From Cyanidioschyzon merolae (Eukaryota), in NCBI GenBank assembly GCA_000091205.1, contig AP006498.2: 64,000 nt of DNA. One strand, 5' to 3'. This document shows, piece by piece, positions 16,676 to 60,249 of this stretch (position 1 is the stretch's first letter; the number at the start of each line of letters is the position of its first letter). Below the pieces are notes generated by a model, which ran no database searches, had not been told where the DNA came from, and saw nothing but the letters and a program-made list of their open reading frames with translations. The position numbers and the translations under genes were made by a program.

Positions 16676-16696
16676 TTCGCGAAGGATTCGGAAGCT
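16676..16696. promoter_or_regulatory. Candidate heat-shock-element-like sequence upstream of HSP70.
   Basis: The sequence ttcgcGAAggaTTCggAAGc has alternating GAA/TTC units about 265-285 bp upstream of the HSP70 ATG. One spacer is 3 nt rather than the canonical 2 nt, so the match is imperfect. It coincides with the terminus of Fanzor copy A. Confidence 0.2.
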
Positions 16697-16699
16697 TTG

Positions 16700-16940
16700 C
16701 CGCGAAAAACGCCAGCGGCGTACAGTAGTGGCAGCGACCGCGCCTTAGACAAATCGTTCTCAGCTGACGTGCAGACGCCTCCCAGCCTTTCTCGACCGGC
16801 CACCTACTACTGCTTCCAACTTCTTCTCATATAGTTCGACTTTGAGGGGTTGTCCAACAAAGTTCTCTCTTGTCTATTCTGGAGATCTGTTCTCCAGCAC
16901 CGCACATCTCCGTATATTGCTAGGGGCATGAAAGTCACGA
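16700..16940 (-). ncRNA. Candidate guide-RNA (fRNA/omega-RNA) scaffold at the 3' end of Fanzor copy A.
   Basis: A roughly 230-nt stretch runs from the RuvC-III codons through the stop codon to the element terminus. It is conserved at nucleotide level in copies A, B, C and D, including past the stop where nothing is coding. It contains complementary segments (cagtagtaggtggc ... gccactactg). This placement matches where TnpB and Fanzor guide RNAs are encoded. No RNA evidence is available from sequence alone. Confidence 0.35.
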
Positions 16941-18274
16941 TTCACACACTCCATACGGTTCTTGCCATCATTGGTTGTACTTACTAACGCAGGCAATCCT
17001 CGAACGTTCGCCCTCCTTTCCATTTGCTCCTCTGTTAGCGGTCCGTACTTTGCGATTTCCTCAGGGCACCGCTGGCACTTGTCTATCTCGACCGTCTGAA
17101 GTGTACAACCCAGCTCGTGGTGTGTATAGGACGTTCGGAACTCATCTACAGGTATCGTGACGAGACGCCTTCCACACTCCTTGTACGTTCTTGTTGTTGG
17201 AGCTGGTATGCACCCCTTTTGGGTCTTCCATCGCCCTGCTCCATACGCTACGACGAGCCTTTGACTCTGGTCCCCGTTGAGCGCACGCAACTGATTGAAA
17301 AAGTTGGCAAACGCCCGCTGCCTCCCACAGTGTAGATTCATACGCAGACGGGCCCACCGAGGCTTTGTATATTCCTTCCACAGCGCATCCCAATGGGCAA
17401 CACGAACTTCCATGAATTTCCGAAAAGCTCGAAAGTCCGCTCCTCGGCTCGTCACCTCGCTCATAGCTTCCAGGTGCTCTTTCATTCCTGAATTCCACGT
17501 TTCGATTTTCTTCGTCGCATTTATGACACCGGATTCTCGATAGAATCTCGCTCTCGAGAACGTCAACAGACGGATGTCTTTCTGACGTAAGTTGCCGTAA
17601 GTACCATCTTCCGCCCGCTTCGGTGCTGCGATGGTTATGGTATTTGTGCTTCCGGGGTCCGTGCCAACGACAAAGTCGATATCCTGCACTTTCTGCTTCT
17701 CAGAACCCGCCTTCTTGTTCTCTTCATTCTTTACCGCGCCAACGACAAGGTCGTTATGCTCCACCTCCTGCATCGCAGGATCCGCCGTCTTCTTATCTTC
17801 ATCCTTCGTCACGTCAACGACAAGGTCGTTATCCTCCACCTCCTGAATCGCACGTTCCTCCTCTTTGTTTTCTTCATCCCTCGTCACGGGCGAAGTCAAA
17901 GGCGGAACTGGCCGATCTGTCTTCAACCGCCGATCGTGTACACAAAAGGCTACCCCATCGGTTTCGATCTTCCCAGTGAATACATTTTGCTTGCTCACTT
18001 TGGGACGCTTGGAATCGGAGATACGCTTCCAGTGGGTCTCCCGGTTTTCGCCGGTGAAATCCTTCCTGCTAACACTGAACTTCGGTCCGATCTCCCTCAT
18101 GATGCCGTAAAGGACGCCGGAGTCGATACTCACGAAGTATGACTTGATATTGGACAATGGAACCACGCCGGAGCGCTTCCCCACTAGGACAGCCTTCCGT
18201 CTCTCCCACTCTTCATTTGTCTCTTCACTCAGCTTCATCTCCGCCTTGCGTTCGAGCTCTCGGTCCAGAAACAC
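16874..18274 (-). CDS. Fanzor/TnpB-like RuvC nuclease, RuvC-containing C-terminal portion of copy A.
   Basis: Motifs: RuvC-I-like [17 protein letters not shown]; RuvC-II-like [22 protein letters not shown]; a zinc-finger remnant KCQRCPEE; RuvC-III-like [16 protein letters not shown] (canonical NRDFNAAINIRR in sister copies). Upstream of RuvC-I there are about 25-aa acidic repeats ([25 protein letters not shown]). Confidence 0.8.
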
Positions 18275-18308
18275 AAAGTACCGTAGGACGAGGCGATAGT
18301 ATCGTTCC

Positions 18309-18947
18309 TTATCTTTTTTTCAACTCTGATATCTTTTCTGTTTGATTCGCCAACCCCAGTACCGCACGGTGCTCTTGTACAGTCGCCCGGATCACAGAAG
18401 CTTCATTCGCGCTCTCGTTTGACGCCTTCTTCTCGACAAATTCGACCTCATCTTCATGCTGTCGATCTTTCGTGATGCCATTGATAGTCGCCCATTTTCC
18501 TTTGCGAGAGATGCCCGGGCGGAGTGCAACCGCGGCGCGGATCACGAAACGTTCGAGGTTCGTTGTCAAACGGCTCGTCAGGTTCGTGAGGTACTTCATC
18601 GCCCCGTGGTCGTAAATATCCGCGCCACCCCTGTATCGGGTACGCTCGAAGCGGAATGCCGCGAAGTTTTCGTGGAGGGCATGCACTAGCACATTTTCCC
18701 TCCACGTTCCTGCTGTACAAAGCATCAGGTAGAGAAAAATCGTCTTGTCGAAAACCTCGTCCGGAATCTCGACCGATTCCATGTGCGTCACGTCGAGATA
18801 CATCTCCCTCGCCAGATGCATCAGTCCTGACGAAGCCTTTATAATACTCATGGAGTACGACTCAACACGGTTTCTAGTTGCCTCCCGTAACTTCTCCACC
18901 CACGCATTCTTGATATGTTTAAGAAGACAGGCTTTCACCACCGTCAC
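18309..18947 (-). CDS. N-terminal portion of the same Fanzor gene (copy A). It is out of frame with the downstream part because of a +1 shift in an A7 tract.
   Basis: In copy C the homologous sequence is one continuous frame (ORF 60843..61577 spans both parts), so the break in A and B is a +1 indel in a poly-A tract. The listed start is a GTG and there is no in-frame ATG. An NLS-like basic segment (RKKNKKQ...RKRQRRRRGR) lies in another frame further upstream. The true N-terminus is unresolved and could reflect an intron, a frameshift or a sequencing error. Confidence 0.55.
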   Translation of the reverse strand: MTVVKACLLKHIKNAWVEKLREATRNRVESYSMSIIKASSGLMHLAREMYLDVTHMESVEIPDEVFDKTIFLYLMLCTAGTWRENVLVHALHENFAAFRFERTRYRGGADIYDHGAMKYLTNLTSRLTTNLERFVIRAAVALRPGISRKGKWATINGITKDRQHEDEVEFVEKKASNESANEASVIRATVQEHRAVLGLANQTEKISELKKR

Positions 18948-19266
18948 GTAGGACTCTTGTTTTTCGTGCAGCTTCTGACGTGGGCTCTCCCTCTTCTGCG
19001 TCTTTGTCTTTTCCTGTTACTCTCCGCCGGGCACTGTTTTTTGTTTTTTTTTCTGGCAGCCGGCGACACCTGCCTTCCAGGATCCTCCACTTGCTTTTCC
19101 AGAAATTTCCTTTTTTTCGAAAAAGAACGCGCTTTGAACGCTTCTGTTATAAACTGCGAAGAATCAACCGAATACACTCATTTGAGCGTTGAAACACGAC
19201 TGAGATGAAGTAATATATTTCGCTACGATTCCAATGCAAATACATGTTTTACGTTAAAACAACAAG

Positions 19267-19955
19267 TCAACGAATGGTCAGGATCGCGTTTCCCTTCAAC
19301 GGCGAGATGCGCGTCGTACCTCATGCCTGCCGGTTATGGAGGTGCGCATCTCGACCGCACTATATGCAGCAAAGAACAGGACTAGCTACTGACTAGCAAT
19401 GAGATGACCATTTCTTTCCCACTCTACAGTAAACGTTAAAAGGGCAAATGTTGCCATATCGTCGGAAGCTTACCTTCCAGGCGAAAGGTCCAGCGAGCCG
19501 GACGAGTCTCCGGGGGTTCGTGCTTCATGGCTTCCCCTTCGCCACCCCAGTGCCAGGTGCTTTAGTGATATCTGACCAACTCATCCCCGAAGCGGTTTAT
19601 TCCGGCATTAAGGGTGCTCAGGCAGCGTCTGGGCGTCGCCCTGGTCGCAGCGCATTCGGTGGTACGCCTACGCTGTTCTGTCCCTGTGCAGCATCCGCTC
19701 CAGCGGTACAAGCGCTGCGGCGGGTGCTCACCGCAGGCTCGGCGCACGAAAGAACGCACAAATCGACCAATCTAGCGGAAAGGGAGTCTAAGTAATGGAA
19801 CCTGGAGGCAGGGTGCACCATGATGGGCGCTTTCCCGAAAGCCGATATCCATCCCGCAATCCGTGATCCACGGTCAACGAATAGGTTTTCTCAGACCAGA
19901 AAAAGAACAAGACACGACGCACATCTCGCCGTTGAAGGGAAACGCGATCCTGATC
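19267..19955. repeat. MITE-like segment bounded by a 41-bp inverted-repeat pair. It encloses an R3 copy.
   Basis: ggtcaggatcgcgtttcccttcaacggcgagatgcgcgtcg at 19267-19307 is reverse-complemented at 19915-19955. The same pair occurs in the duplicate at 32415 and 33060. A single arm is present at 60089-60131 beside copy C. Confidence 0.45.
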
Positions 19956-20079
19956 ATGAACGTGTCGCTCTAACGGACAAGACGTGTTAGGGTTGAAGGG
20001 GCAGCAAGGTCTAGTCTTTCAATGCATTCGTGTTCCACTAGCCTCGTAGAGTATTCAAGTGGTTTTTCGCGGTTAACAG

Positions 20080-20583
20080 CAGATGCGTTCCAAGTGCGTT
20101 CGTTCTCAAAAAAAATAGAATGCAATGGTATGGACGTGAAAGTCGAGGATACCGGAGGACCGTCATTGCCGAGTTCGACAAGCAAAATGAGGAAATCCTC
20201 TTCCCGCCGACCACCTATCCAAGAAGAACAACGGGTGACGACAACGAAGACGATGACGATGACGACGATGCGATATAGGCGAGAAAAGGTGTTTGCTCAC
20301 CGGTACGTTTACGAAACTGTGGTGGCACAGAGAGCACGAGTTCGAGGCGTCTTCGCAAAGCGAGGTTCCACCATCGGCCATAAATGCAAGGAGTTCGTCG
20401 ACCGAGACCCCAACGTCGCCATCATGATCAGATAATATGCAGAGCGAAAGACTTTACCCGAGGAACTGACGCGATCTGACTTGCGGGGCAGTCTCTCAGG
20501 GTCTCCGTACACAACCAGAAGCTGAAGCCGACAGCAGGGCCCGGTCCAGCACGGCAGGGAGGCGTCTGCGGGTAGATATCCAT
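20080..20583 (+). mobile_element. Short non-autonomous Fanzor-derived element (family 2, F2a, about 500 bp).
   Basis: It has a Fanzor-type 5' terminus (gcgttccaagtgcgttcgttctcaaaaaaaata...gtcgaggataccggaggacc) joined to the 3' region, which encodes a RuvC-III remnant (KEFVDRDPNVAIMI) and a conserved tail ending gggtagatatccatg. The internal coding region is deleted. Confidence 0.6.
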
Positions 20584-22577
20584 GTATACGACATGGTCGT
20601 GGGACGTTTTTGTTCCACTGACAGGTGCGTTCGAGTTACATAGAACTGAACAGATCCACGGACAAAGACGTATGCACTAATATTTCGGCTTCTTTAAACG
20701 ACGCTGGTCTCTCCTTTCTCTCCGGCGCTGTTCATAGCAGTCGCACGATATTGGCGGTGGTGGTGTTCAGGCCCCGATTCCATAGCTGCCGACTCTTGTC
20801 TAGGCATTCCATGCACTGCCAAAAGTTGCCATCTTCGCTTCGCTTGCCATGTGCACCTTCTCTCCACTCTGTTGCGGTGCGCCCGTCGCAGCGTTGCCGC
20901 TTGGCTGTGGTCTGGCGGTCACATGCCACCAGCATACTTCGTCATCTGACGGCTAGTCGCTGACACGTGAACGCTCGCGTCGACGCTCCGTAACTGTGTG
21001 TGGCGGGTCCAGAAGCCTCACCTCAGTGCCCTGCTCCGTTCTCGCACCAGCTGCCGTAACCTACGCTCACGGGCTTCTGCTGGGCGATCGCCTCGGCGAG
21101 AGCGCTCCCCGCAGCACACGCCTGCGCATGCTGCTCCCTTCTCTAGACGACTCGTCGAAGGCGATGCTCTCCAGACAGGAACAGGTACCGCAACGAACCT
21201 CCCAGGCCGGCGTGCACGTCGTGAACTCTCGATCTGTCTTCGCTCGCTTCGCGCAAAGCAGTGACGCACACTCTACTCAAAGTCATCGCAGCGATGAGTA
21301 AAGCCCGGGTCCAAGACCCCTTTCCATGCGCAGAAAAGAGACGGGCGCCTCTGAGCGCATGTTCCGGGAACTGCACCATACTGCCAATGAGTGCCGCTCC
21401 GTCGATAGCCCCACATAGAGGTGGCATTGCCTCTCAAGCGAAACTGCCTGTTTGCAGTGATAAGCTGCGTGACGTTTCAGCGAGAGTCTGTGAACGAGTC
21501 GTCACGGCCTCAACCCAGGTATTTTTCGTCGTTCATCCAGCGACGTGAAGTGCTGCACCCGAGTGTCGCCTTGAAACAGAGGCATCGAACCTTGGCGCAT
21601 GCGAGTGATTCGTGCACGCTACACTTAGGAATATGAGAAGCGCAGAGGCTTGTACACATGTCGTGGAAGAAGATGCCTTTTATGTGATGAATCCTTGCTC
21701 GTGGGTGCCGCGCATCATTCAAATGACGGTGACGTGACGAATGCGAGCGGCAGAGGGTCTACAAAGCAACTCCGGATGTGCGACCCTGATTCCTACAGCT
21801 ACTTCCCAGTCCATGAGCCCGCACTGTTGCACTTTGCATCTACAGGCTGGAGATCTAAAACAATTGCGGAAAAATCTCAAGCCAGGAACTGCGCGAGCAG
21901 CTCAGTTCTCCACTTTAATCTGACTTAAGAATAGGATGCCATGGGTGCCTACAACTGGGACTCCGCGCGAACACGCTGCAGAAGCGTTGTTGCAGCCTCT
22001 GGACTGCAGGGAGCGCCACGCGGCGAACCAGGCCCTTTCCGCATACGACAACCCGACTCGCCAGGCTGTGACCTGGCCATACCTCAGATGGTGCTTCAGC
22101 GAACCTTGGTTCCGGACGGCCGACTTCATACGCTGGACATAGGAGCATTGCGTACTCTTTTGATCCTTCGAGAAAACATGTAATCGTTATGTGGGAACGA
22201 GCAACGCCCCTCACGGAGCATGCCACATTCGTTCTCCTGTTGCTCAACTGCCCCCCAGCCGCGGTGTCTGACGAGACGTTTGCTCTCGGGGACACCCGAC
22301 AAGTTAAATACGAACGGATTCGGGCATCCCAGGCCCGCTGATGCTATTCGAGAAGGCATACGCCTGTCGTAAATGAAACGCAATGTGTACCTCTATGGCG
22401 CACCCTCTGACGAGCAGATGCCAACACACGCGCGCTCGAAGACTGCTCCCGAAAGAAGGCCTTCCAGGACACGTAAGAGCTCTTCAATAGCATAGTGCTT
22501 GCAGCTGGTTCTGCTCAGTCCGCTCAGAGCGACGCTAGACCTCACACTGATTCCGTAGGAGCTTGCAACACAGTGCA

Positions 22578-24170
22578 CTACAGGCTTCCGAGTATGATTG
22601 AGCCCACAAGACAAAGAGCAAGCACACCGCCAATGTCTGTAAGCGTGCTGAGCAGTGGGCTCGCGCAGTGGCATGGATCCAATCCCATCTGAGCCAGGAT
22701 GAGCGGAGCAATTGTTCCGATTAGAACTGCAGTGAAAACGGTTATCCAAAGAGAGGTTGAGACAGTTACACAGGCCAAAAAGTCACCGCCCCCGATATAT
22801 ACACGCGTAAAGCCAACTGCTGAAAGGATCGTGGCTATAGCGCACCCGACGAGGAGTTCCCTCCGGATGACACGACCCGCATTTGCAGGGCTGATCTCTC
22901 CGGTGGCGAGCCCTCGTATCACCAGGGCACTGGATTGGTTACCGGCGTTACCACCGGCACCAACCATCATCGTTAGAAAGAGTGCGAGCACGACGTGACG
23001 TTCAATGAGGGCCGAATACTGGCCCAATACAATCGAGCTCAATGACTGGAGAAGCAGAAGAGCAACCAACCATGCAGATCGACCAATTACGAAGGATCGT
23101 GTGCTCGTCTGAAAGTACGACTCTATGTCATCTCTCTGTAAAGGTGATTCGACACCACCAAAGCGAAGGATGTCGTCAGTTGCTTCAAGTTCCATCTCCC
23201 GAATGATATCCGCTGCGGTAACGAGCCCTACGAGACGCATCTCACGATCCACAACAGGGGCAGTCAGTGCTCCAACGTTCCGCAGGCGCCGAACTGCTGC
23301 CTCAAACTCCTCGTCAACCGAAAGCACAACAGAGCATTGTCGCACAAACTGATCAATTTTCTGTTCATCATCCGCGGCAAGCAAGAGATCCTCCAAAGAG
23401 AGAAATCCCACAAGCCCCGACGTGCACGGGTCCAGTACGTAGAGTGCATCCAAAACAGGGGCACTCTGATTCCTTACCTGCATTGCGGCAGTTATCGGGA
23501 GCTGTAGGGAGCCTGGTGCTTGCGAGTTGCTGTCCCGGACGGTGCCATTCACTGTCGCAGGATCGGGTACTGGGGCGGTATCATGGACACGATGGAGCTG
23601 CCAGAGGAGGCCCTTGCACTCACGCACCGTGTAGCCCAGGGGAACCGTTACAGCCTCGCGTCGCGAGGTTGTATCGGTCCAGACCCCACCGGCCGGGACG
23701 CAACCGGGGCCCATGATAGTAGCGACACAGGCCTCGCGGTCTGCAACCCGGGCTTTGAGAAGCGAATCACCAGTTTCAGCGGTCGGAGACCTCGAGTCCT
23801 GCCAAAGTCCATCAGGAAGCGGCCTCAGAGTATCGTTCGAGTGCTCCGCGCGTGGCCCGGTGCTGGCTGTTGCACTCAGAACGCGGCGCCGGAGACGTAC
23901 CCTCGACCTCCCCATAGAGGCCGGTCGCGTGCCGGCTACACCACGAGCAGCGGTCGCGCCGTAGCTAAGGCCACCAGCCACGCGTGTCCGCCACGCGCAT
24001 GCGTTTCGGTGTGCAGTTCCCGAGTGAACCGCGACCTGGCCGGTCCACCGAACTGAGCTCGTCACAAAACTCAGAAAGGAGGCCCCGAAGCGCTCAGAGC
24101 TCGTCATAGCCGCATTCGACGTACTTCGGAGCCTCTTTGGCGTCCCTTGGGTACCTAAGACAACACTCAT
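22578..24170 (-). CDS. MgtE-family (SLC41-like) magnesium transporter with a cytosolic CBS pair.
   Basis: It has CBS-like segments (SVDEEFEAAVRRLRNVGALTAPVVD...LVGLVTAADIIREM) and an MgtE membrane domain containing the MMVGAGGNAGNQSSAL motif. The start is an ATG. Confidence 0.85.
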   Translation of the reverse strand: MSVVLGTQGTPKRLRSTSNAAMTSSERFGASFLSFVTSSVRWTGQVAVHSGTAHRNACAWRTRVAGGLSYGATAARGVAGTRPASMGRSRVRLRRRVLSATASTGPRAEHSNDTLRPLPDGLWQDSRSPTAETGDSLLKARVADREACVATIMGPGCVPAGGVWTDTTSRREAVTVPLGYTVRECKGLLWQLHRVHDTAPVPDPATVNGTVRDSNSQAPGSLQLPITAAMQVRNQSAPVLDALYVLDPCTSGLVGFLSLEDLLLAADDEQKIDQFVRQCSVVLSVDEEFEAAVRRLRNVGALTAPVVDREMRLVGLVTAADIIREMELEATDDILRFGGVESPLQRDDIESYFQTSTRSFVIGRSAWLVALLLLQSLSSIVLGQYSALIERHVVLALFLTMMVGAGGNAGNQSSALVIRGLATGEISPANAGRVIRRELLVGCAIATILSAVGFTRVYIGGGDFLACVTVSTSLWITVFTAVLIGTIAPLILAQMGLDPCHCASPLLSTLTDIGGVLALCLVGSIILGSL

Positions 24171-24386
24171 TCAATAGGCTCCCGAGAGAAGCCTGGGGAG
24201 CTGCAAAAGATATCTGCAGTGGACCGTCGTGCGCTTCCAGGTTGCCCGACTTGGGCGAGTGCTCCACTGGAACGAACAGCAGCGAGAGCGCTCGATGACG
24301 CCCGGCGGCAGCGCAGCTGCAGATCGCACACTCGTCCATTTGCGGGTGTAGCTGCAATCGCTAAATTGTCAAGTGCAAGCGGCACC

Positions 24387-24975
24387 AGCAACTCGAGAAC
24401 GATGGGTTTCTCTCTCTACGGTAAGTGCTGAAAGGGGGAAGAGGTTTTCCGTATTTTCGAAACTTTATCCTATAGATGGAAAAGCAGCAACTCGAGAACG
24501 ATGGGTTTCCATCTCCACGGTAAGCGCTGAAAGGGGAAGAGGTATTCCGTATTTTCGAAACTCTACCCCATAGATGGAAAAGCAGCAACTCGAGAGCGTT
24601 TGCTTTCCCTCTCTACGGTAAGTGCTGAAAGGGGGAAGAGGTTTTCCGTATTTTCGAAACTTTATCCTATAGATGGAAAAGCAGCAACTCGAGAACGATG
24701 GGTTTCCATCTCCACGGTAAGCGCTGAAAGGGGGAAGAGGTATTCCGTATTTTCGAAACTCTACCCCATAGATGGAAAAGCAGCAACTCGAGAGCGTTTG
24801 CTTTCCCTCTCTACGGTAAGCGCTGAAAGGGGGAAGAGGTATTCCGTATTTTCGAAACTCTACCCCATAGATGGAAAACCAGCAACTCGAGAACGATGGG
24901 TTTCCATCTCCACGGTAAGCGCTGAAAGGGGGAAGAGGTTTTCCGTATTTTCGAAACTTTACCCTATAGATGGCA
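24387..24975. repeat. Tandem array of six 98-99-bp units, with two alternating variants giving a period of about 197 bp.
   Basis: The unit is agcaactcgagaacgatgggtttccatctccacggtaagcgctgaaagggggaagaggtattccgtattttcgaaactctaccccatagatggaaa. Each unit carries a GGTAAG splice-donor-like site and a downstream GUAUUUUCG tract. Confidence 0.9.
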
Positions 24976-26442
24976 GATCTCGCGTGCTCGACGTGTCTAC
25001 CGGGCTTGTGCTCCGTGCGACTCTGCAGTGGCGGGTGCTCTTGCGCGACCTGAGTAGCATACCCGCTCCTAGGCCCAGAATAAAGTGCGTTGGGGACGAG
25101 TGGCTGTGCTGTTGCCACTGCACTCGCCAGGGCAGAGACGCGCGGACCTACAACACCGGAGCATTGTCGGCCTTGCGGGACCTTTCGTACAGAAGCTAGG
25201 TTTGCGACTGTAAGGAAACCTTCACCACTTTTCAGCTCTTACGGTGGAGTGGGAACGAAGTCATGCAAAGTAGTTTGTTCGTGTTTCATTTCTGTTCTAT
25301 TACCCTAATAGTTGATGTCCAGTGAAACGGAACGCATGCCCGGGTTGCGCTGCCGGCGCGGCAATTGTTGATACAATAACATCGATGAATCGAACCAGAA
25401 CGCTTGGGATGCGTACGTTCGTGCTGTACGCAATCAGGAAAGTGACCAGCATTCCCTAGAGACGTCCATGCGCCCCGGAAGCTGCAGCCCGTTTCCCAGC
25501 CTGCACCGGGAGTTTGACTGAGCGAACGACCCTGCAATTGCCGAGCCTACCGCAAGCGCTTGCTGTGGCGTTGCAGGCGCCCAACTAGTCGCCTTGTGGA
25601 GACAAAAAGCGTCTGCGTCGTATCCCAGCGGGAATCTCATCGAGGCTCAGGGCCATGCCCGCCTGGCACACGCCCCTTCGTTGTCCGTGCGAATTTCGGG
25701 CCGCATGGAGGTCGTGCTGCGGCGCGAACTCGCGGCATCGTCGTATCTGCTCGCTGAAGAGCGACCGCCTGCGGTCGCTGCTTCCTCCGCATACCGTGCA
25801 ACTGCATTCTTTCTGCCAACGGGGGTGACGTGCGCCAGTTCGGCATCGCCCGCGTGCTGCAAATTTGAAACCGTCACCGGCAAAGGATTTCTGTCCGCCT
25901 AAGTAGCTTCTCTAGGCACAGGCGTCTCCATCGGGAGCTGGGTACACGTGCTGGGTTCCGGATGAGGGTGCATACCCAGTCTCGCCACAATGCCCGCTCG
26001 CTGGACGTATCCGCGTGACGCTGTGTGCCTCGTTTGCCTCCAGGCCGGGTTTCTGGTAGTTGAGGACACCGCGCAGCCTGCTCATATGCAAGCCAGCCGA
26101 TCCTGCGTGCATTTTCGTGATCGAGTGCTCGCGTGCGTGCTATCAGTAGCCCGTCTGCGTGCCATCCGATTCCACGAGGAATCTTCAGAACAAATGCGCG
26201 CACCTACAGCATCAGTGGCAACGAGTAAGCACGAGTACCGCAGACCTCGAGTGCAGACTGCTGTATGCCTTGCATGCAGCGCGTCGCGCTGTCGACGCTG
26301 CGGCAGGGCGCCTTGTGCGCAAATCGGCTGCGACGTCTGTACTCGCGTCGAGACGCCTTTCCAGTAGGCAGCGTTCGGGAAAACTGCAGCCTTGCCAATA
26401 GAACTGAACGTTGTTGCACGGAATAGGAGCTGTGGAACATGC

Positions 26443-28353
26443 ATGTCCAGGGAAAACGGGAACAACGGCCAGAATGGGAATACGACGGACGAAGAGGCTT
26501 TCCTTGTCGACGAGAGAACAATGACGGTAGATGGGCTTCCCCTGCACATCTGGTGTCGCACGCCCGGGAACCTAGCAAAAGTACGGGCCCTGGTGGAGCG
26601 AGGCGCAGACGTCAACGCGGTTGACGAACACGATGCGACACCGGTCTACTACTGCGCCTTGACGGGGAACGCTCCAGTGCTCCGTTTCCTGCTAGAAGCG
26701 GGAGCCGTGCTCGACCCGAAAACGTTTGTTGGCGAGCGTGTTCTATACGCCGCTCTAACTCCAGAAATTAAACGCTTGCTGCTTCAGTATCGGGAGCAAA
26801 CGCTCCCTAGCTATACGGATGCACTGACGGAGCACCTGCGCGCTGTCCTGGAGGGTAACGAGAACGTCGGCGGACACGTCGATGATGATGCCGACGTCGG
26901 CTTCAGACTTGAGGGGAATCGCTGCATCTGGGCCCATCGGGTGGTGCTCGCTGCCCGCAGCCCGGTTTTCGAGAAAATCCTCGAGAAACGAACATCACCG
27001 GGCAAAGTCCTGCGGCTGAAACACGTCTCCACGGATGCATTCGAGGCGTTTCTGCGCTACCTGTACACCTCAACCGTTTCCGTGCGGGTACGGCATGCGG
27101 AAGAATTCATGACCATAGCGCAGCGGTTCCATCTCGATGAGCTCGCCCAGGAAGTCGATAGGCAAAGGCAATGGCTCTTGCGAAAGCGCGAGCACAAATA
27201 CGAAGTTGTAACGCATCAGCGCCTCGAAGATCTACACATCAATCTTTTCGGCGCGTCGCGAGTCCACCGTCTGGAACAGGACTTGGAGCACCTTCTGTCG
27301 CGTACCGATAACATGCCGTTCGTGGACGTGTACGTACAGGTAACGTGCCCAGGCCCCACATACGAGGAATGTTCGTTGTTGGTGTACCCCGCGCACTGGC
27401 TTTTTCTTCGTCGTGCGGAGTACTTTCGGGCCTTGCGCGACTTTTATCGCGATCGTTCCAGTGCCTGTGCAATCGTGCGCATCCCGTCGAATATCTCTCC
27501 TTTTGCTTTCGAATGCGTGTTGCATCACATGTACCATTCGAGCCTTCCCCGGAACTGGCGCGAAAAGGCACTTGATTGTGCGCGCCTCCGACGCGAGCCG
27601 TGCAATCATCACGCAGTGGACGTCGACATGAACGAGTTTCTGGTGGAGATCATTGCCGCCGCCGACCTTCTGGGCTATCCGCATGTGAAGCAGTCAGCCG
27701 CCTCAGCGATGGAAATCAATCGCATCAATGTCTTCGGTCTCATCTACGCGGCGGCATGTTATCAGTCGCGGGCGTTGCGAGCAGCTTGTGTGCGAATCCT
27801 TGCGGAGATGCTGTTGGATGCGGTGCAGCCTCTGCTTGTGCCGAGCGTCACGGCGATTTCTTGTTCGGCAACCCGAGTTCCAGAGCCCGGCAGTATTGCA
27901 GAGGCCTTGGTGCCGCACGTGGATTCGCAGTTGAGGCTTCCGCCCGCCGATTCTCGCACACGAGACTCGTCGATTGCCACCTCACAGGAATCGAACCACG
28001 CTAGCCAATGCTCGTCGATTGCTGCAGTGTCCGCAACGGACACTTGCACAATGCCGTCGTGGCAGGTTCTGAACCAGTGTCCGACGCATGTCGTTCAGGT
28101 CGACCGGCACGCAACCGTTTTCCAGCGTGCGCGCGATTTCATCGCCCTCAGACAAGTGCTCAGTGCGGTTGAATTCTCGGAAATCATGGAGGATGTTCGC
28201 GAGGAAGCCCTGCGTCTGGGCCTCGTGCATAAATTTAGTTCGGCAGTCAGGGACGCACTCGGCGAGACGCTGGATTGTATCGTTTTCGAAATCACGGACG
28301 GGCTGGTGTTGGCCGAGGGCAGCGCAGAGCGCACCACGAGACACCATGCGTAG
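26443..28353 (+). CDS. Ankyrin-repeat and BTB/POZ-domain protein.
   Basis: It has N-terminal ankyrin-like repeats (GADVNAVDEHDATPVYYCALTGNAPVLRFLLEAGA) and a BTB-like domain (GNRCIWAHRVVLAARSPVFEKILE...LKHVSTDAFEAFLRYLYT). The track start at 26392 is a TTG, so the start was moved to the first ATG. Confidence 0.7.
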   Translation: MSRENGNNGQNGNTTDEEAFLVDERTMTVDGLPLHIWCRTPGNLAKVRALVERGADVNAVDEHDATPVYYCALTGNAPVLRFLLEAGAVLDPKTFVGERVLYAALTPEIKRLLLQYREQTLPSYTDALTEHLRAVLEGNENVGGHVDDDADVGFRLEGNRCIWAHRVVLAARSPVFEKILEKRTSPGKVLRLKHVSTDAFEAFLRYLYTSTVSVRVRHAEEFMTIAQRFHLDELAQEVDRQRQWLLRKREHKYEVVTHQRLEDLHINLFGASRVHRLEQDLEHLLSRTDNMPFVDVYVQVTCPGPTYEECSLLVYPAHWLFLRRAEYFRALRDFYRDRSSACAIVRIPSNISPFAFECVLHHMYHSSLPRNWREKALDCARLRREPCNHHAVDVDMNEFLVEIIAAADLLGYPHVKQSAASAMEINRINVFGLIYAAACYQSRALRAACVRILAEMLLDAVQPLLVPSVTAISCSATRVPEPGSIAEALVPHVDSQLRLPPADSRTRDSSIATSQESNHASQCSSIAAVSATDTCTMPSWQVLNQCPTHVVQVDRHATVFQRARDFIALRQVLSAVEFSEIMEDVREEALRLGLVHKFSSAVRDALGETLDCIVFEITDGLVLAEGSAERTTRHHA

Positions 28354-28393
28354 CACATGCACTGGACTAGCGTGCAGAACGCCGTTTCCAACT

Positions 28394-29212
28394 TTACATA
28401 TCGCGAAACTCTATTCGACGCGATTTTAGAAGCGCCCACTTGAATCGTTTCATGTAAAGCATCAGACCTGCCAGAATGCCCAGAGAAACCATGGTTTCAA
28501 CACCCATGAGCTTGCGCTGATCGTGCTCCGGCTCTGCTGCCCAGCTCAGAAACGTAGCCACATCTTTCGCCATCTGACTTGTTGTGGCCGGAGTTCCGTC
28601 GTCGTACTCGACACCGTCATCGTAGAGCGCTCGGGCCATTGCAATCTGCTGGCCAGGGAAGTATGGATTGTAGTAGAGGCCTTCGCGAACGTGCACACCG
28701 GCCGGTGGATCACGGTAACCAGTCAGGAGTGCGAAGATGTAGTCGGCACCACCATGACGTGCCTTGGTGATCAAAGATAGGTCCGGCGGAAGCGCTCCGT
28801 TGTTGGCGTAGCGCGCGGCCTCTGCATTTGGATATGGCGCTGGGAAATAGTCCGAGAGTCGGCCAGGACGAGTAAACATCTCGCCTTCGTCGTTAGGCCC
28901 ATCCTCAACCTCAACCTCCTCCGCTAGCTGTTTCGCCTCCTCCTCAGTGAAGGCAACACCCACCAGGTTGCGAAAAGCGACTCGGTTCATCGAGTGGCAC
29001 GAAGAGCAAACATTCTTGTAAACTTGGTAGCCACGACGTATGGAAGCTGCGTCAAACGCTGACAAGGGACCGCGGTGAGACCAGGGGTATTTTGGTGGTG
29101 GCAAGTGGTCCTCTTCGGCGAGCGCGGGCTGTGCGCTCATCAGAAGATACCCGGCACCCGAGACGCCCGCCGCGAAAGCCGCGCCGTTCAGCAGTCGCGT
29201 TAGGACCTGCAT
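28394..29212 (-). CDS. CYC1: Cytochrome c1 of the bc1 complex.
   Basis: It has a heme-binding CSSCHS motif ([21 protein letters not shown]), followed by [25 protein letters not shown] and a C-terminal membrane anchor. The track ORF starts at a GTG at 29314, so the start was moved to the first in-frame ATG ([16 protein letters not shown]...). Confidence 0.85.
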
Positions 29213-29793
29213 TCCTTTGACGCGATTCTTCTCGATATAATTGAAGCGTTGTCCAGTAACCTGAAAGATCGGGCGCTGCCAGAAAACTCGTCCGCAACAA
29301 GGCACGAAATGCACGCCCTGTCGAAGCGCAACAGCACACCGGTACAGTGTTAGCGGCCTTTCACCGCAGAAACTCGCACTGATGGTGCTTTACGGAAGCT
29401 TCTCTTCGTCGCGCCTTGAGCTCTGTTCCCGGTCGAAGCGAGGCTCCCCGGGTCTGCAAAGCTCTAATAAAGCCACGTGGGCAAAGAGTCGTGCACTGCA
29501 GCAGCTGCAGCACGAACCAGATATGCTGCACCCGTTCAGAGCAAGTGCAGTGCCTCGTCTCTACTGCCGATAACGGATCCGGAGACCGACGACGGTAGAG
29601 AAACCAAACGCCTTCACAGAGTCGAACGATGCCGACTGTGTACAGTAGTGGCGGTGAACGCGCCCTAGACTTAAAGTCGCCAATTGACGTGCAGACGCCT
29701 CCCAGCCTTTCTCGACCGGCCACCTACTACTGCTTCCAACTTCTTCTCATATAGTTCGACTTTGAGAGGTTGTCCAACAAAGTTCTCTCTTGT

Positions 29794-31419
29794 CTATTCT
29801 GGAGATCTGTTCTCCAGCACCGCACATCTCCGTATATTGCTAGGGGCATGAAAGTCACGATTCACAAACTCCATACGGTTCTTGCCATCATTGGTTGTAC
29901 TTACTAACGCAGGCAATCCTCGAACGTTCGCCCTCCTTTCCATTTGCTCCTCTGTTAGCGGTCCGTACTTTGCGATTTCCTCAGGGCACCGCTGGCACTT
30001 TTCCATCTCGACCGTCTGAAGTGTACAACCCAGCTCGTGGTGTGTATAGGACGTTCGGAACTCATCTACAGATATCGTGACGAGACGCCTTCCACACTCC
30101 TTGTACGTTCGTGTTGTTGGAGCTGGTATGCACCCCTTTTGGGTCTTCCATCGCCCTGCTCCATACGCTACGACGAGCCTTTGAGTCTGGTCCCCGTTGA
30201 GCGCACGCAACTGATTGAAAAAGTTGGCAAACGCCCGCTGCCTCCCACAGTGTAGATTCATACGCAGACGGGCCCACCGAGGCTTTGTATATTCCTTCCA
30301 CAGCGCATCCCAATGGGCAACACGAACTTCCATGAATTTCCGAAAAGCTCGAAAGTCCGCTCCTCGGCTCGTCACCTCGCTCATAGCTTCCAGGTGCTCT
30401 TTCATTCCTGAATTCCACGTTTCGATTTTCTTCGTCGCATTTATGACACCGGATTCTCGATAGAATCTCGCTCTCGAGAACGTCAACAGACGGATGTCTT
30501 TCTGACGTAAGTTGCCGTAAGTACCATCTTCCGCCCGCTTCGGTGCTGCGATGGTTATGGTATTTGTGCTTCCGGGGTCCGTGCCAACGACAAAGTCGAT
30601 ATCCTGCACTTTCTGCTTCTCAGAACCCGCCTTCTTGTTCTCTTCATTCTTTACCGCGCCAACGACAAGGTCGTTATGCTCCACCTCCTGCATCGCAGGA
30701 TCCGCCGCCTTCTTATCTTCATCCTTCGTCACGTCAACGACAAGGTCGTTATGCTCCACCTCCTGCATCGCAGGATCCGCCTTCTTCTCATTTTCATCCT
30801 TCGTTACGCCAACGACAAGGTCGTTATGCTCCACCTCCTGCATCGCAGGATCCGCCGCCTTCTTATCTTCATCCTTCGTTACGCCAACGACAAGGTCGTT
30901 ATGCTCCACCTCCTGCATCGCAGGATCCGCCGTCTTCTTATCTTCATCCTTCGTCACGTCAACGACAAGGTCGTTATCCTCCACCTCCTGAATCGCACGT
31001 TCCTCCTCTTTGTTTTCTTCATCCCTCGTCACGGGCGAAGTCAAAGGCGGAACTGGCCGATCTGTCTTCAACCGCCGATCGTGTACACAAAAGGCTACCC
31101 CATCGGTTTCGATCTTCCCAGTGAATACATTTTGCTTGCTCACTTTGGGACGCTTGGAATCGGAGATACGCTTCCAGTGGGTCTCCCGGTTTTCGCCGGT
31201 GAAATCCTTCCTGCTAACACTGAACTTCGGTCCGATCTCCCTCATGATGCCGTAAAGGACGCCGGAGTCGATACTCACGAAGTATGACTTGATATTGGAC
31301 AATGGAACCACGCCGGAGCGCTTCCCCACTAGGACAGCCTTCCGTCTCTCCCACTCTTCATTTGTCTCTTCACTCAGCTTCATCTCCGCCTTGCGTTCGA
31401 GCTCTCGGTCCAGAAACAC
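29794..31419 (-). CDS. Fanzor/TnpB-like RuvC nuclease, C-terminal portion of copy B (541 aa with the expanded acidic repeat).
   Basis: It has the same RuvC-I, RuvC-II, zinc-finger and RuvC-III motifs as copy A, and five to six copies of [25 protein letters not shown]. Confidence 0.8.
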
Positions 31420-31453
31420 AAAGTACCGTAGGACGAGGCGATAGTATCGTTCC

Positions 31454-32092
31454 TTATCTTTTTTTCAACTCTGATATCTTTTCTGTTTGATTCGCCAACC
31501 CCAGTACCGCACGGTACTCTTGTACAGCCGCACGGATCACAGAAGCTTCATTCGCGCTCTCGTTTGACGCCTTCTTCTCGACAAATTCGGCCTCATCTTC
31601 ATGCTGTCGATCTTTCGTGATGCCATTGATAGTCGCCCATTTTCCTTTGCGAGAGATGCCCGGGCGGAGTGCAACCGCGGCGCGGATCACGAAACGTTCG
31701 AGGTTCGTTGTCAAACGGCTCGTCAGGTTCGTGAGGTACTTCATCGCCCCATAGTCGTAAATATCCGCGCCACCCCTGTATCGGGTACCCTCGAAGCGGA
31801 ATGCCGCGAAGTTTTCGTGGAGGGCATGCACTAGCACATTTTCCCTCCACGTTCCTGCTGTACAAAGCATCAGGTAGAGAAAAATCGTCTTGTCGAAAAC
31901 CTCGTCCGGAATCTCGACCGATTCCATGTGCGTCACGTCGAGATACATCTCCCTCGCCAGATGCATCAGTCCTGACGATGCCTTTATAATACTCATGGAG
32001 TACGACTCAACACGGTTTCTAGTTGCCTCCCGTAACTTCTCCACCCACGCATTCTTGATATGTTTAAGAAGACAGGCTTTCACCACCGTCAC
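31454..32092 (-). CDS. N-terminal portion of the Fanzor gene in copy B, with the same A7-tract +1 frameshift as copy A.
   Basis: It is near-identical to 18309..18947. Confidence 0.55.
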   Translation of the reverse strand: MTVVKACLLKHIKNAWVEKLREATRNRVESYSMSIIKASSGLMHLAREMYLDVTHMESVEIPDEVFDKTIFLYLMLCTAGTWRENVLVHALHENFAAFRFEGTRYRGGADIYDYGAMKYLTNLTSRLTTNLERFVIRAAVALRPGISRKGKWATINGITKDRQHEDEAEFVEKKASNESANEASVIRAAVQEYRAVLGLANQTEKISELKKR

Positions 32093-33224
32093 GTAGGACT
32101 CTTGTTTTTCGTGCAGCTTCTGACGTGGGCTCTCCCTCTTCTGCGTCTTTGTCTTTTCCTGTTACTCTCCGCCGGGCACTGTTTTTTGTTTTTTTTTCTG
32201 GCAGCCGGCGACACCTGCCTTCCAGGATCCTCCGCTTGCTTTTCCAGAAATTTCCTTTTTTCGAAAAAGAACACGCTTTGAACGCTTCTGTTATAAACTG
32301 CGAAAAATCAACCGAATACACTCATTTGAGCGTTGAAACACGACTGAGATGAAATAATATATTTCGCTACGATTCCAATGCAAATACACGTTTTACGTTA
32401 AAACAACAAGTCAACGAATGGTCAGGATTGCGTTTCCCTTCAACGGCGAGATGCGCGTCGTACCTCATGCCTGCCGGTAATGGAGGTGTGCATCTCGACC
32501 GCACTATATGCAGCAAAGAACAGGACTAGCTACTGACTAGCAATGAGATGACCATTTCTTTCCCACTCTACAGTAAACGTTAAAAGGGCAAATGTTGCCA
32601 GATCGTCGAAAGCTTACCTTCCAGGCGAAAGGTCCAGCGAGCCGGACGAGTCTCCGGGGGTTCGTGCTTCATGGCTTCCCCTTCGCCACCCCAGTGCCAG
32701 GTGCTCTAGTGATATCTGACCAACTCATCCCCGAAGCGGTTTATTCCGGCATTAAGGGTGCTCAGGCAGCGTCTGGGCGTCGCCCTGGTCGCAGCGCATT
32801 CGGTGGTACGCCTACGCTGTCCTGTCCCTGTGCAGCATCCGCTCCAGCGGTACAAGCGCTGCGGCGGGTGCTCACCGCAGGCTCGGCGCACGAAAGAACG
32901 CACAAATCGACCAGTCTAGCGGAAAGGGAGTCTAAGTAATGGAACCTGGAAGCAGGGTGCACCATGACGGGCGCTTTCCCGAAAGCCGATATCCATCCCG
33001 CAATCCGTGATCCACGGTCGATGGATAGGTTTTCTCAGACCAGAAAAAGAACAAGACACGACGCACATCTCGCCGTTGAAGGGAAACGCGATCCTGATCA
33101 TGAACGTGTCGCTCTAACGGACAAGACGTGTTAGGGTTGAAGTGGCAGCAAGGTCTAGTCTTTCAATGCATTCGTGTTCCACTAGCCTCGTAGAGTATTC
33201 AAGTGGTTTTTCGCGGTTAACAGC

Positions 33225-33728
33225 AGATGCGTTCCAAGTGCGTTCGTTCTCAAAAAAAATAGAATGCAATGGTATGGACGTGAAAGTCGAGGATACCGGA
33301 GGACCGTCATTGCCGAGTTCGACAAGCAAAATGAGGAAATCCTCTTCCCGCCGACCACCTATCCAAGAAGAACAACGGGTGACGACAACGAAGACGATGA
33401 CGATGACGACGATGCGATATAGGCGAGAAAAGGTGTTTGCGCAACCGGTACGTTTACGAAACTGTGGTGGCACAGAGAGCACGAGTTCGAGGCGTCTTCG
33501 CAAAGCGAGGTTCCACCATCGGCCATAAATGCAAGGAGTTCGTCGACCGAGACCCCAACGTCGCCATCATGATCAGATAATATGCAGAGCGAAAGACTTT
33601 ACCCGAGGAACTGACGCGATCTGACTTGCGGGGCAGTCTCTCAGGGTCTCCGTACACAACCAGAAGCTGAAGCCGACAGCAGGGCCCGGTCCAGCACGGC
33701 AGGGAGGCGTCTGCGGGTAGATATCCAT
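33225..33728 (+). mobile_element. Short non-autonomous Fanzor-derived element (F2b). It is the duplicate of F2a.
   Basis: It has the same sequence as 20080-20583 within the duplicated block. Confidence 0.6.
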
Positions 33729-35220
33729 GTATACGACATGGTCGTGGGACGTTTTTGTTCCACTGACAGGTGCGTTCGAGTTACATAGAACTGAACAGAT
33801 CCACGGACAAAGACGTATGCACTAATATTTCGGCTTCTTTAAACGACGCTGGTCTCTCCTTTCTCTCCGGCGCTGTTCATAGCAGTCGCACGATATTGGC
33901 GGTGGTGGTGTTCAGGCCCCGATTCCATAGCTGCCGACTCTTGTCTAGGCATTCCATGCACTGCCAAAAGTTGCCATCTTCGCTTCGCTTGCCATGTGCA
34001 CCTTCTCTCCACTCTGTTGCGGTGCGCCCGTCGCAGCGTTGCCGCTTGGCTGTGGTCTGGCGGTCACATGCCACCAGCATACTTCGTCATCTGACGGCTA
34101 GTCGCTGACACGTGAACGCTCGCGTCGACGCTCCGTAACTGTGTGTGGCGGGTCCAGAAGCCTCACCTCAGTGCCCTGCTCCGTTCTCGCACCAGCTGCC
34201 GTAACCTACGCTCACGGGCTTCTGCTGGGCGATCGCCTCGGCGAGAGCGCTCCCCGCAGCACACGCCTGCGCATGCTGCTCCCTTCTCTAGACGACTCGT
34301 CGAAGGCGATGCTCTCCAGACAGGAACAGGTACCGCAACGAACCTCCCAGGCCGGCGTGCACGTCGTGAACTCTCGATCTGTCTTCGCTCGCTTCGCGCA
34401 AAGCAGTGACGCACACTCTACTCAAAGTCATCGCAGCGATGAGTAAAGCCCGGGTCCAAGACCCCTTTCCATGCGCAGAGAAGAGACGGGCGCCTCTGAG
34501 CGCATGTTCCGGGAACTGCACCATACTGCCAATGAGTGCCGCTCCGTCGATAGCCCCACATAGAGGTGCCATTGCCTCTCAAGCGAAACTGCCTGTTCGC
34601 AGTGATAAGCTGCGTGACGTTTCAGCGAGAGTCTGTGAACGAGTCGTCACGGCCTCAACCCAGGTATTTTTCGTCGTTCATCCAGCGACGTGAAGTGCTG
34701 CACCCGAGTGTCGTCTTGAAGCAGAGGCATCGAACCTTGGCGCATGCGAGTGATTCGTGCACGCTACACTTAGGAATATGAGAAGCGCAGAGGCTTGTAC
34801 ACATGTCGTGGAAGAAGATGCCTTTTATGTGATGAATCCTTGCTCGTGGGTGCCGCGCATCATTCAAATGACGGTGACGTGACGAATGCGAGCGGCAGAG
34901 GGTCTACAAAGCAACTCCGGATGTGCGACCCTGATTCCTACAGCTACTTCCCAGTCCATGAGCCCGCACTGTTGCACTTTGCATCTACAGGCTGGAGATC
35001 TAAAACAATTGCGGAAAAATCTCAAGCCAGGAACTGCGCGAGCAGCTCTGTATTGCATTGATTCTAACACTGGCGCTGCATCAGGTGCCGCCGCTGTTTC
35101 TCTGCAAAGCTCTGCCGTGCGCTCTCTCTCGCTTTCTCTCTCTACAACCTCCTCTCCGCGCCCTTGGCCAAAACACGTGAACAGAGTGCTGGATGTCGAG
35201 CATAACGCCCCGTTGCGCAG

Positions 35221-35724
35221 CTATCCGCCAGTCTGCACCTGCTTCGAGTACTCTCTCACTAAATAGACCAGGACCGCTATGCATACAGGAACAAACAGTC
35301 GTTTCAAAAGCGTCCACGTGCTGGATCCACCAGAGAGCGGCTCAGCTCCGAACGCGCCCCCGGCAAAGAGTCGCTCTTTTCCCAGACCGTTGGCTCGAAC
35401 ACCATCGCCGTCACGCCTCTCGGCTGCTGCACTCGCTTGGACGGCTCGCTTTGCAGCGAGTTCCTCTGCAGTGGGCTCTCGTACGTCACCAATGTAAAAC
35501 TCTTTGAGCTGCTCCCGCGCAGACTTGGAGTGACCGACATCCTCGAACTCGCGCGTCGCGTCCCGACCTGCGGTCTCGAGGAGCACGTCTTCGCCTCCGG
35601 GGTGCTCGTTCAGAAACTTCTCAACGGCGTATACTTTACCATCGATGACTAGCCAGCATGAGTCCTTATCTGCGTGTTTAGCGACCTCGTCCAAAGTAAA
35701 CTGAGTCGTGCGACCCATCGCCAT
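35221..35724 (-). CDS. CYB5: Cytochrome b5, with a heme-binding domain and a C-terminal membrane anchor.
   Basis: It has an HPGGEDVLLETAGRDATREFEDVGHS heme-binding motif and a hydrophobic C-terminus (LFVPVCIAVLVYLV). The track ORF starts 33 codons upstream at an ATG at 35823, which lies inside the Fanzor copy D terminus. The conserved b5 domain begins at M-A-M, so that start was chosen. Confidence 0.8.
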   Translation of the reverse strand: MAMGRTTQFTLDEVAKHADKDSCWLVIDGKVYAVEKFLNEHPGGEDVLLETAGRDATREFEDVGHSKSAREQLKEFYIGDVREPTAEELAAKRAVQASAAAERRDGDGVRANGLGKERLFAGGAFGAEPLSGGSSTWTLLKRLFVPVCIAVLVYLVREYSKQVQTGG

Positions 35725-35726
35725 CA

Positions 35727-36500
35727 CCAACGCCGTTCGAAAGTCGAACGACGCCAACGGTGTACAATAGTGGCGAGTGACCCGCCCTAGAGGAGACGTC
35801 GCCAGTTGATGTGCGGACGCCATCCAATCTTTCTCGACCGGCCACGTACAACTGCTTCCAACTTTTTCTCATATAATTCCACGTTGGGAGGTTCTCCCAC
35901 AAAATTCTCTCTTGTCTACTTTGGAGGTCTATTCTCCAGCACCGCACATCTCCTTATATCGATAGCTGCGTTAAGGTCTCGGTTCACAAACTCGATACGT
36001 TTCTTGCCATCATTGGTTGTACTTACTAATGCAAGTAGCCGTCGAACTTTTGCCCTCCTTTCCATTTGCTCGTCTGTCAGCGGTCCGTACTTTTTTATAT
36101 CCTCAGGGCTCCACTGACACTTTTACATTTCCACTCTCTGAGGTGTGCATCCGAGTTCATGGTGTGTACACGATGTTCGGAACTCATCTACAGGTATCGT
36201 GACGAAACGCCTTGCGCACTCCTTTTACGTTCTTGTCGATGGAGCTGGTGTAGTCCCTTTTTGGGTCTTCCATCGGCCTGCTCCGTACGCTACTACGAGC
36301 CTCTGACTTTCATCCTCCTTCAGGGCACTCAGCTGATTGAAGAAGTTTGCGAACGCCCGCTGCCTCCCACCGTATAGATGCATACGCTGACGAGCCCACC
36401 GGGGCTTTGTATACCCTTTCTACAGCTCCTCGTTATGAGCAGCGCGAGTATTCATGAACTCCAGAAAAGCCTGAAAGTCCGCTCAACGGCTCGTCACGTT
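35727..36500 (-). mobile_element. Truncated family-1 Fanzor element (copy D), 3' part only. Its terminus abuts the cytochrome b5 start codon.
   Basis: It aligns with the 3' roughly 770 bp of copies A and B, covering the tail, the stop and the RuvC-III/zinc-finger region. It ends in gccactattgtaca followed by cgttggcgtcgttcgactttcgaacggcg. Similarity to A and B stops near 36500. Confidence 0.65.
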
Positions 36501-36539
36501 ACCGATAGATGAGTAACGAACGACTTTCGTCCACCATGA

Positions 36540-60240: not shown

Positions 60241-60249
60241 GACTTTTCG

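Follow-up and report, generated by a model that had tools for sequence, protein, structure and literature searches.

Probable ectopic gene conversion between two clusters of dead transposons in Cyanidioschyzon merolae

We analysed a 64,000-nucleotide stretch of the genome of the red alga Cyanidioschyzon merolae 10D (contig AP006498.2 of assembly GCA_000091205.1), referred to here as the window, in which two clusters of mobile-element remnants carry an almost identical interior. All coordinates are positions in this 64-kb window, and A and B designate the two near-identical copies. Each unit consists of three dead mobile elements—a copy of the CMe-1A Fanzor1 element, an inverted and internally deleted derivative of a Fanzor, and a dispersed repeat that we call R. 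Each locus owns private copies of both outer element ends, and the interior alone is shared. This arrangement is probably the product of repeated ectopic gene conversion between two transposon clusters that were already resident at their respective loci, rather than of a single recent duplication mediated by the Fanzor element, as the initial annotation had proposed.

The near-identical tract and its private ends

Over the clean tract (Table 1), 40 substitutions were counted in 5138 bp in a global alignment, which corresponds to an identity of 99.22% with indels excluded. The indels themselves comprise two of 1 nt (at 19111 in A and at 33443 in B) and one of 225 bp, equal to three 75-bp units, at 17739/30660. 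A self-BLAST of the window returned the pair as two segments—30808-35048 against 17663-21903, with 98.70% identity over 4242 columns, and 29640-30808 against 16720-17888, with 97.19% over 1173 columns—and both types of alignment bear out the initial description of two blocks that are about 98-99% identical. The Fanzor element, the segment bounded by inverted repeats and the short derivative that had been described in each block were all located as well. The two clusters lie in direct orientation, 12.9 kb apart, on a 908-kb chromosome (908,485 bp), and with 5.1 kb at 99.2% identity the pair is a segmental duplication in the sense of at least 1 kb at no less than 90% identity, present at two loci.

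That two loci exist, as had been argued from their flanks, is supported by hot-spring metagenome contigs (JGI and ENA), 98.4-99.7% identical to the window, in which all four junctions between unique genes and the units were independently recovered: HSP70 into A, MgtE into A, cytochrome c1 into B and cytochrome b5 into B. A break 120-140 bp inside the right boundary is seen in many, if not most, of the contigs, as is expected of k-mer assembly at a true two-copy repeat. The high A/B identity is the sole support for the idea that a single locus was mis-assembled twice in the reference; against it stand the 40 fixed differences, the recovery of the four junctions in many independent JGI and ENA assemblies and the finished, telomere-to-telomere state of the reference genome (PMC1955436), and its probability is close to nil. 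Among 359 family members found in metagenomes, no third near-identical copy was detected, identities of at least 90% being confined to A-locus orthologues.

Both edges of the tract fall inside elements that continue beyond it. On the left, the duplicate that had been placed from 16720 onwards is real, but its first 46 bp (16720-16765) lie outside the near-identical tract: 16720-16732 is a 13-nt motif kept in all copies of the family, and 15 of the 32 positions in 16733-16764 differ, with the difference continuing to the element terminus. Identity changes abruptly from 68% to 99%, either at 16765/16766 or somewhere within 16766-16846, a block that is free of mismatches. Across the ~57 nt beyond this switch, the A/B identity is 68%, where the median for the family is 70%, and the two left tails rank 26th or 31st of 53 as each other's relative; the private tails are therefore no closer to one another than random pairs within the family. 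The left boundary had also been equated with the Fanzor tail terminus. This equation does not hold, as the 3' terminus of CMe-1A, set by more than 60 independent copies at ~16690 in A and ~29588-29607 in B, lies 75-100 bp outside the start of near-identity. On the right, when A and B were left out of the R profile, its alignments extended to 21941 in A and to 35081 in B, reaching model position ~1280 with high posterior probability, 38 nt (A) and 33 nt (B) past 21903/35048; the two right continuations differ from each other. The flanks, initially described as entirely different, are so beyond the element termini, but the last ~75-100 bp before the left terminus and the last ~35 bp before the right one are still homologous, though diverged. 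What we found, then, is a high-identity tract inside longer diverged homology (68% on the left and aligned to the R profile on the right), the configuration by which gene conversion is recognised. No direct repeat indicative of a target-site duplication (TSD) was found at the tract junctions, and the termini differ between A and B.

The divergence between the copies is patchy even within the tract. No substitution occurs in 17266-18370, where 8.6 are expected (P=2e-4), and a single one is present in 20000-21334, where 10.4 are expected (P=3.5e-4); the interval 19089-19999, in turn, accumulates 19 against an expectation of 7.1 (P=1.5e-4). This distribution points to tracts of different ages. 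An intact Fanzor open reading frame (ORF) is absent from both A and B, which are family members by descent and pseudogenes. The two copies share a frameshift, with seven adenines where intact relatives have six, and an in-frame stop in the N-terminal region (GGE*QEK, the asterisk being the stop, with SPEEQEK in the further copy C), and B carries an additional 1-nt deletion upstream. The shared frameshift lies within the A7 homopolymer, and a mutation would be its simplest reading. The TAG that closes the ORF at 16874 was seen in several other copies and need not, for that reason, be a lesion. Codon changes between A and B amount to 10 nonsynonymous and 3 synonymous ones which, taken with the shared lesions, indicate that the sequence is neutral and not self-mobilising. 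The suggestion that the Fanzor element mediated the duplication is not supported by these observations: the termini are private at both edges, and the ORF-killing lesions are shared, so that this Fanzor copy could not act on itself.

Environmental populations add a further line of evidence. Two independent A-locus assemblies from Yellowstone match the A copy of strain 10D except in two patches, 17800-18200 (6-12% different) and 18800-19200 (10-25% different), and in both patches 10D A and 10D B are the same but for 0-3 differences per 200 bp. The Yellowstone patch sequence is confined to the A locus and is at most 88% identical to any other copy. Judging from these alignments, the 10D A copy was evidently overwritten in the two patches; with metagenome assemblies as the term of comparison, 10D A resembles its paralogue more than its own orthologues. 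At the B locus, two environmental contigs (L007, 1-655, and L010, 1-280) have the usual B tail and flank joined to different bodies at the same switch block. The body of L007 is 95.7% identical to that of another locus, L035, and the body of L010 does not exceed 82% identity with any sequence seen. The sequence shared across the switch measures only ~38 nt, which makes a chimera from a high-k assembly graph unlikely. The two contigs may represent either B alleles converted by different donors or unconverted relics, and we regard them as supportive, not decisive, evidence; their bodies, like the A-locus patches, look like independent family members.

Gene conversion and alternative explanations

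On this basis, we infer that each cluster already held CMe-1A at one edge and R at the other, and that the interior of one cluster was overwritten with the sequence of the other, non-allelically and more than once. The route would be double-strand-break repair or template switching on the other cluster, without crossover. The switch points would lie in the 80-nt block just inside the CMe-1A tail and in a conserved motif near the R end; as the switches would have fallen in the best-conserved stretches, the outermost ~75-100 bp and ~35 bp would have stayed locus-specific. Homology in the two edge elements would seed the event, with the 0.74-kb inverted derivative carried along between them. The nucleus of C. 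merolae recombines homologous DNA with high efficiency. A crossover between the clusters would delete MgtE, the BTB/ankyrin gene and cytochrome c1, which would explain why only conversions survive.

Several points weigh against this interpretation. Its weak point is the right edge, since R copies are ~60% identical family-wide, which is low for homologous resolution; either a short conserved patch is needed there, or R copies that were once more alike, as an old duplication of the composite would have left them. The right private stretch, moreover, measures merely 33-38 nt. The mosaic evidence comes from short-read metagenome assemblies, which can be chimeric in repeats, an objection limited by the fact that each patch has matching sequence to its left and right and was found in more than one independent assembly. 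Finally, neither an unconverted nor an empty, pre-duplication site was found for use as an outgroup, as the environmental contigs with variant MgtE and cytochrome b5 all carry the same junctions and both right junctions are present in all environmental contigs; either cluster may therefore have been the donor.

The initial annotation had favoured a recent one-step duplication or transposition of a 5.2-kb composite into an empty site, mediated by the Fanzor end. A long tract of uniform order, 99.2% identical and sharply bounded, with unrelated genes beyond it and its left boundary within 100 bp of an element terminus, is what such an event would produce. However, each locus has its own element ends at family-level divergence, neither a TSD nor a shared terminus is present, and the Fanzor ORF had been broken before A and B diverged from their common ancestor; this model also has to contend with the patchy divergence and the mosaic environmental alleles, and it needs two extra end-replacement events. 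We consider it unlikely. No more probable in our judgement is an old duplication of the whole composite (CMe-1A, derivative and R), followed by strong divergence and by a recent conversion of the interior only—a variant of our preferred explanation that differs only in the first origin of the clusters. While it accounts for two loci with matching edge elements, identically ordered and oriented, and for how the event could be resolved at the R end, poorly conserved as it is, the private tails on the left are not each other's nearest relatives (26th and 31st of 53), and the A-locus patches and the bodies of L007 and L010 resemble independent family members. We also rejected a tandem duplication that would have included A and the genes between the clusters, as the self-BLAST shows nothing resembling the A-to-B interval after B.

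By analogy with TnpB-assisted transposon retention, an active Fanzor encoded elsewhere might also have cut one locus, with repair copying the unit from its paralogue. Such RNA-guided homing would fit the conserved 3' tail with its strand-specific hairpin (see below), which is consistent with an omega-RNA, the recurrence of switch points near the tail in three B-locus alleles, and the persistence of intact ORFs in an old family that is ~20% diverged from its consensus (Bao & Jurka, PMC3627910). A guide-target match is not demonstrated, however, the Fanzor genes and hairpins of A and B are degenerate, the recurrent switches are equally explained by the most-conserved block, and ordinary breaks suffice; homing at this pair is, in our view, barely credible. 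We regard as highly unlikely the broader conjecture that CMe-1A copies are kept alike, and their ORFs alive, by homing-like conversion following Fanzor/omega-RNA cleavage near the tails. If it were true, the A/B pair would be a eukaryotic case, caught in the act, of TnpB-style RNA-guided copy restoration, and the process would explain the intact ORFs reported by Bao & Jurka. Repeated ectopic conversion between resident clusters is thus the explanation that we retain as probable.

Constituent elements of the two units

The features of the two units are collected in Table 1. The larger element is CMe-1A, a known family, to which it was assigned by published description; its placement in the Fanzor1 class rests on Bao & Jurka (PMC3627910). 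These authors reported ~150 copies of ~3 kb, without terminal inverted repeats (TIRs), with TSDs that could not be determined and with the 5' 635 bp common to TE-N2_CMe. The 3.2-kb interspersed repeat with a WSV486-like ORF counted in 253 copies by Nozaki et al. 2007 (PMC1955436) is the same element. In the window, the 5' TE-N2-like segment reaches ~19904, and it was found both joined to and apart from Fanzor bodies. The sole inverted repeat found in the unit joins the element body to the adjacent derivative, not the two ends of the element. The remnants in A and B present the split RuvC D/E/D motifs with a Zn-finger (C..C) between motifs II and III; the consensus motifs of the relatives read GADPGNTN, VDEFRTS and NRDFNAAINI, and both copies keep the catalytic RuvC residues, with substitutions among the RuvC-III neighbours.

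Table 1. Coordinates of the tract, the elements and their landmarks in the window
Feature	Position	Strand	Remarks
Near-identical tract, copy A	16766..21903	.	99.22% identical to B, excluding indels
Near-identical tract, copy B	29686..35048	.	A plus 225 bp
Locus-specific (unconverted) 3' end of A element	16690..16765	-	68% identical to B; hairpin degenerate, small deletions
Locus-specific (unconverted) 3' end of B element	29603..29685	-	Identical in all environmental B-locus contigs, even with a different body
CMe-1A Fanzor1 element, copy A (~3.2 kb)	16690..19904	-	tblastn to relative P0001; tail from >60 copies; 5' extent from other loci; PMC3627910, PMC1955436
CMe-1A copy A, parts	3' tail; ORF remnants 16874-19034; TE-N2-like 5' segment ~19270-19904	-	
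CMe-1A Fanzor1 element, copy B	29603..33049	-	tblastn; tail terminus
Shared frameshift (A7, A6 in intact relatives)	18313..18320 (~18315)	-	In B ~31458-31465
Shared in-frame stop, N-terminal region	19017..19019	-	
75-nt in-frame tandem repeat, copy A (3.0 units)	17663..17888	-	Tandem Repeats Finder (TRF)
75-nt in-frame tandem repeat, copy B (6.0 units)	30583..31033	-	TRF
44-nt inverted repeat, left arm (CMe-1A body), A	19274..19317	.	Right arm 19914-19957
44-nt inverted repeat, B	32418-32461 and 33058-33101		Both arms
Short internally deleted Fanzor derivative (0.74 kb)	19910..20650	+	In B ~33055-33796
Derivative, parts	5' part 19910-20160; C-terminal remnant and tail 20244-~20650	+	
R element, copy A	20685..21941	+ (coding sense on -)	Last ~38 nt (21904-21941) outside the tract
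R element, copy B	33830..35081	+	Last ~33 nt (35049-35081) locus-specific, still matching the R profile

We found 49 Fanzor relatives, the closest 43 of which are 47-81% identical and all derive from the same kind of metagenome. When a profile of 20 relatives was searched against the PDB, SpuFz1 (8GKH) came out as the best and only meaningful match, at a marginal E=0.012, over 330 residues that span the IETDG region, RuvC-I and RuvC-II. Pfam PF07282 reached only 12 bits on relative P0001, the relatives carry the precomputed assignment PF26935/DUF8286, and a Pfam scan of the A-copy ORFs returned nothing useful. Further diverged pieces of the element are present in the window: copy C at 59895-62720 (+), 79% identical and frameshifted; copy D at 35726-36497 (-); copy E, a partial inverted copy, near 36573-36824; and copy F at 43415-43573. 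To the right of cytochrome b5, two 5'-truncated Fanzor C-terminal fragments are arranged head-to-head, at 35726-36509 (-) and ~36573-36824 (+).

The last ~40-47 nt of CMe-1A fold as a long, G-U-rich hairpin (e.g., 35726-35807 on the minus strand, and loci L018-L097). Two tail sub-types keep this hairpin with different sequences, TTCGA/TCGAA in one and TTTTTC/GAAAG in the other; they are out of register with each other, which explains why RNAalifold returned a weak consensus for 39 whole tails, and the hairpin statistics given here come from per-sequence folding instead. In 33 of 43 copies, the sense RNA gives the more stable fold (P=2e-5). The hairpin is strong in intact copies, with -21.6 kcal/mol and z=-5 in copy D, and degenerate in A and B. 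Both a transposon-end structure and the end of an omega-RNA scaffold are consistent with these properties of the tail hairpin. The variable patch at 16733-16764 was considered as a candidate omega-RNA guide and rejected, the stretch being homologous and moderately conserved across the family.

The array of 75-nt units lies in frame within the ORF, encoding an acidic 25-residue repeat per unit, between the IETDG region and the RuvC-I motif. The difference in copy number noted initially is confirmed at 3.0 units in A and 6.0 in B, and the instability of the array is supported as well: among family proteins, P0001-P0043 (alignment A3, columns ~440-560) have between 1 and at least 6 units, and the distant P0044-P0048 have none. 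As to the three-unit expansion that had been proposed, the 225-bp difference stands, but its direction does not follow, as one in-register deletion in A would fit the 10D sequence equally well. The additional units B2-B4 are hybrids in which the first 46 nt correspond to unit 2 and the 3' part resembles unit 1, and they differ from one another by 2-6 nt; the 10D state could have arisen by stepwise unequal exchange in B as well as by a single deletion, in register, in A. Three units are present at both the A and B loci of the environmental assemblies, which favours an expansion in 10D B, although short-read collapse may mislead here. The change would have come about by slippage or unequal exchange inside the array, during or after conversion. 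In yeast, tandem-repeat number is reportedly altered by break-repair synthesis, a finding attributed to Paques et al. in 1998.

The short derivative stands head-to-head with CMe-1A and contributes, with its first 44 nt, the right arm of the inverted repeat; in A, the two 44-nt arms are 95% complementary and bound 596 nt. Its tail sub-family is common to 53638-53900 and 43356-43665. The right 1.3 kb of the unit gave no hits in default BLAST searches and was at one point taken as unique DNA; a sensitive search overturned this notion by uncovering the R repeat family. R copies are old dispersed repeats of ~1.25 kb with 58-62% identity, detected by sensitive BLAST and a profile hidden Markov model. 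Six occur in the 64 kb—besides those in A and B, at 1915-3196 (-), 12851-13858 (-), 45356-46637 (+) and 54072-55355 (-)—and others were found at 13 or more metagenome loci. On its minus strand, the R consensus gives helix-turn-helix (HTH) hits and a Pfam DDE_3 match (33.1 bits, cut-off 28.6) that is truncated ahead of the third acidic residue; next comes a TnpB/Cas12f Zn-ribbon (32.5 bits, cut-off 26.3), which ends in the RuvC-III motif NRDFNAAINILR and is 34% identical to a Fanzor C-terminus. Exact-protein look-ups of the small ORFs in the R part were uninformative. In the way of TIRs, the consensus shows only a ~20-nt sub-terminal inverted match (CTGAACTG...), and its ends are not sharply defined. 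This domain order suggests that R arose by deletion from a Fanzor-bearing transposon of the Tc1/IS630 type. The table of Bao & Jurka holds a single Fanzor1 family for this alga (PMC3627910), and Nozaki et al. listed eight class II elements (PMC1955436); the R family is unrecognised in these two surveys. R represents a very old Tc1/IS630-plus-Fanzor family that occupies a noticeable share of the intergenic DNA of the window.

Genomic setting and relation to known systems

Cluster A lies upstream of HSP70 and cluster B upstream of cytochrome c1, at ~280-390 bp from these genes and in the same orientation as them. Two proteins of the window match 10D entries exactly, MgtE (BAM81784.1) and an SDR protein (BAM81788.1), and the cytochrome b5 ORF belongs to the same 90%-identity cluster as BAM81787.1, which is shorter (167 aa). 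The accession numbering leaves room for two genes, BTB/ankyrin and cytochrome c1, between MgtE and cytochrome b5, and unit B therefore appears to have no annotated protein gene. The 3' terminus of copy D (35722-35726) abuts the annotated start codon of cytochrome b5 at 0-1 nt, so that the 5' untranslated region and promoter of this gene must lie in the element tail. Rfam and tRNA scans found nothing within the units, the sole hit being a tRNA-Leu at 38601-38685. Tandem arrays were observed at 24386-24973 (99 nt x 5.9), with an apparent copy number that varies among environmental contigs and a possible contribution of short-read collapse, at 12371-12795 (~71 nt) and at 3897-4473 (complex).

Dead Fanzor elements, on this evidence, would still reshape a compact, transposon-poor algal genome as recombination substrates, and the age of an insertion cannot, for this reason, be read from the identity between copies; estimates of the age or number of 'young' CMe-1A copies that rely on pairwise identity will mislead. 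The A/B pair also offers a concrete pair of loci for measuring ectopic conversion in an alga whose genetic toolkit is built on homologous recombination.

Drawing on published descriptions, the element agrees with CMe-1A as reported by Bao & Jurka in 2013 in its host, in a length of ~3.2 kb without TIRs, in a TnpB-like ORF with RuvC D/E/D motifs and a Zn-finger, in a TE-N2-like 5' segment of ~0.6 kb and in copies that are ~75-85% alike. The A/B pair departs from it in being 99% alike, far above the family norm, in consisting of two pseudogenes and in a similarity that runs 2 kb past the element. With SpuFz1 of Spizellomyces punctatus (8GKH) and TnpB/omega-RNA systems, CMe-1A would share a structured 3' tail kept where an omega-RNA would be encoded; however, the match to SpuFz1 is marginal (E=0.012), and the A and B copies are inactive. 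R resembles the Tc1/mariner/IS630 transposons with Fanzor1 of Bao & Jurka (2013) in its HTH, DDE_3, TnpB/Cas12f Zn-ribbon and RuvC-III parts, and differs in being a 1.25-kb deletion derivative at ~60% identity. As an event, the pair is of a known kind, an instance of ordinary repeat homogenisation within an already described element family. It shares with ectopic conversion and concerted evolution in yeast Ty elements, human segmental duplications and Y palindrome arms an internal tract with older diverged edges, patchy divergence, paralogues closer than orthologues and no crossover product; it differs from these systems in that two different dead transposons seed the exchange at the edges, with a third element carried across between them.

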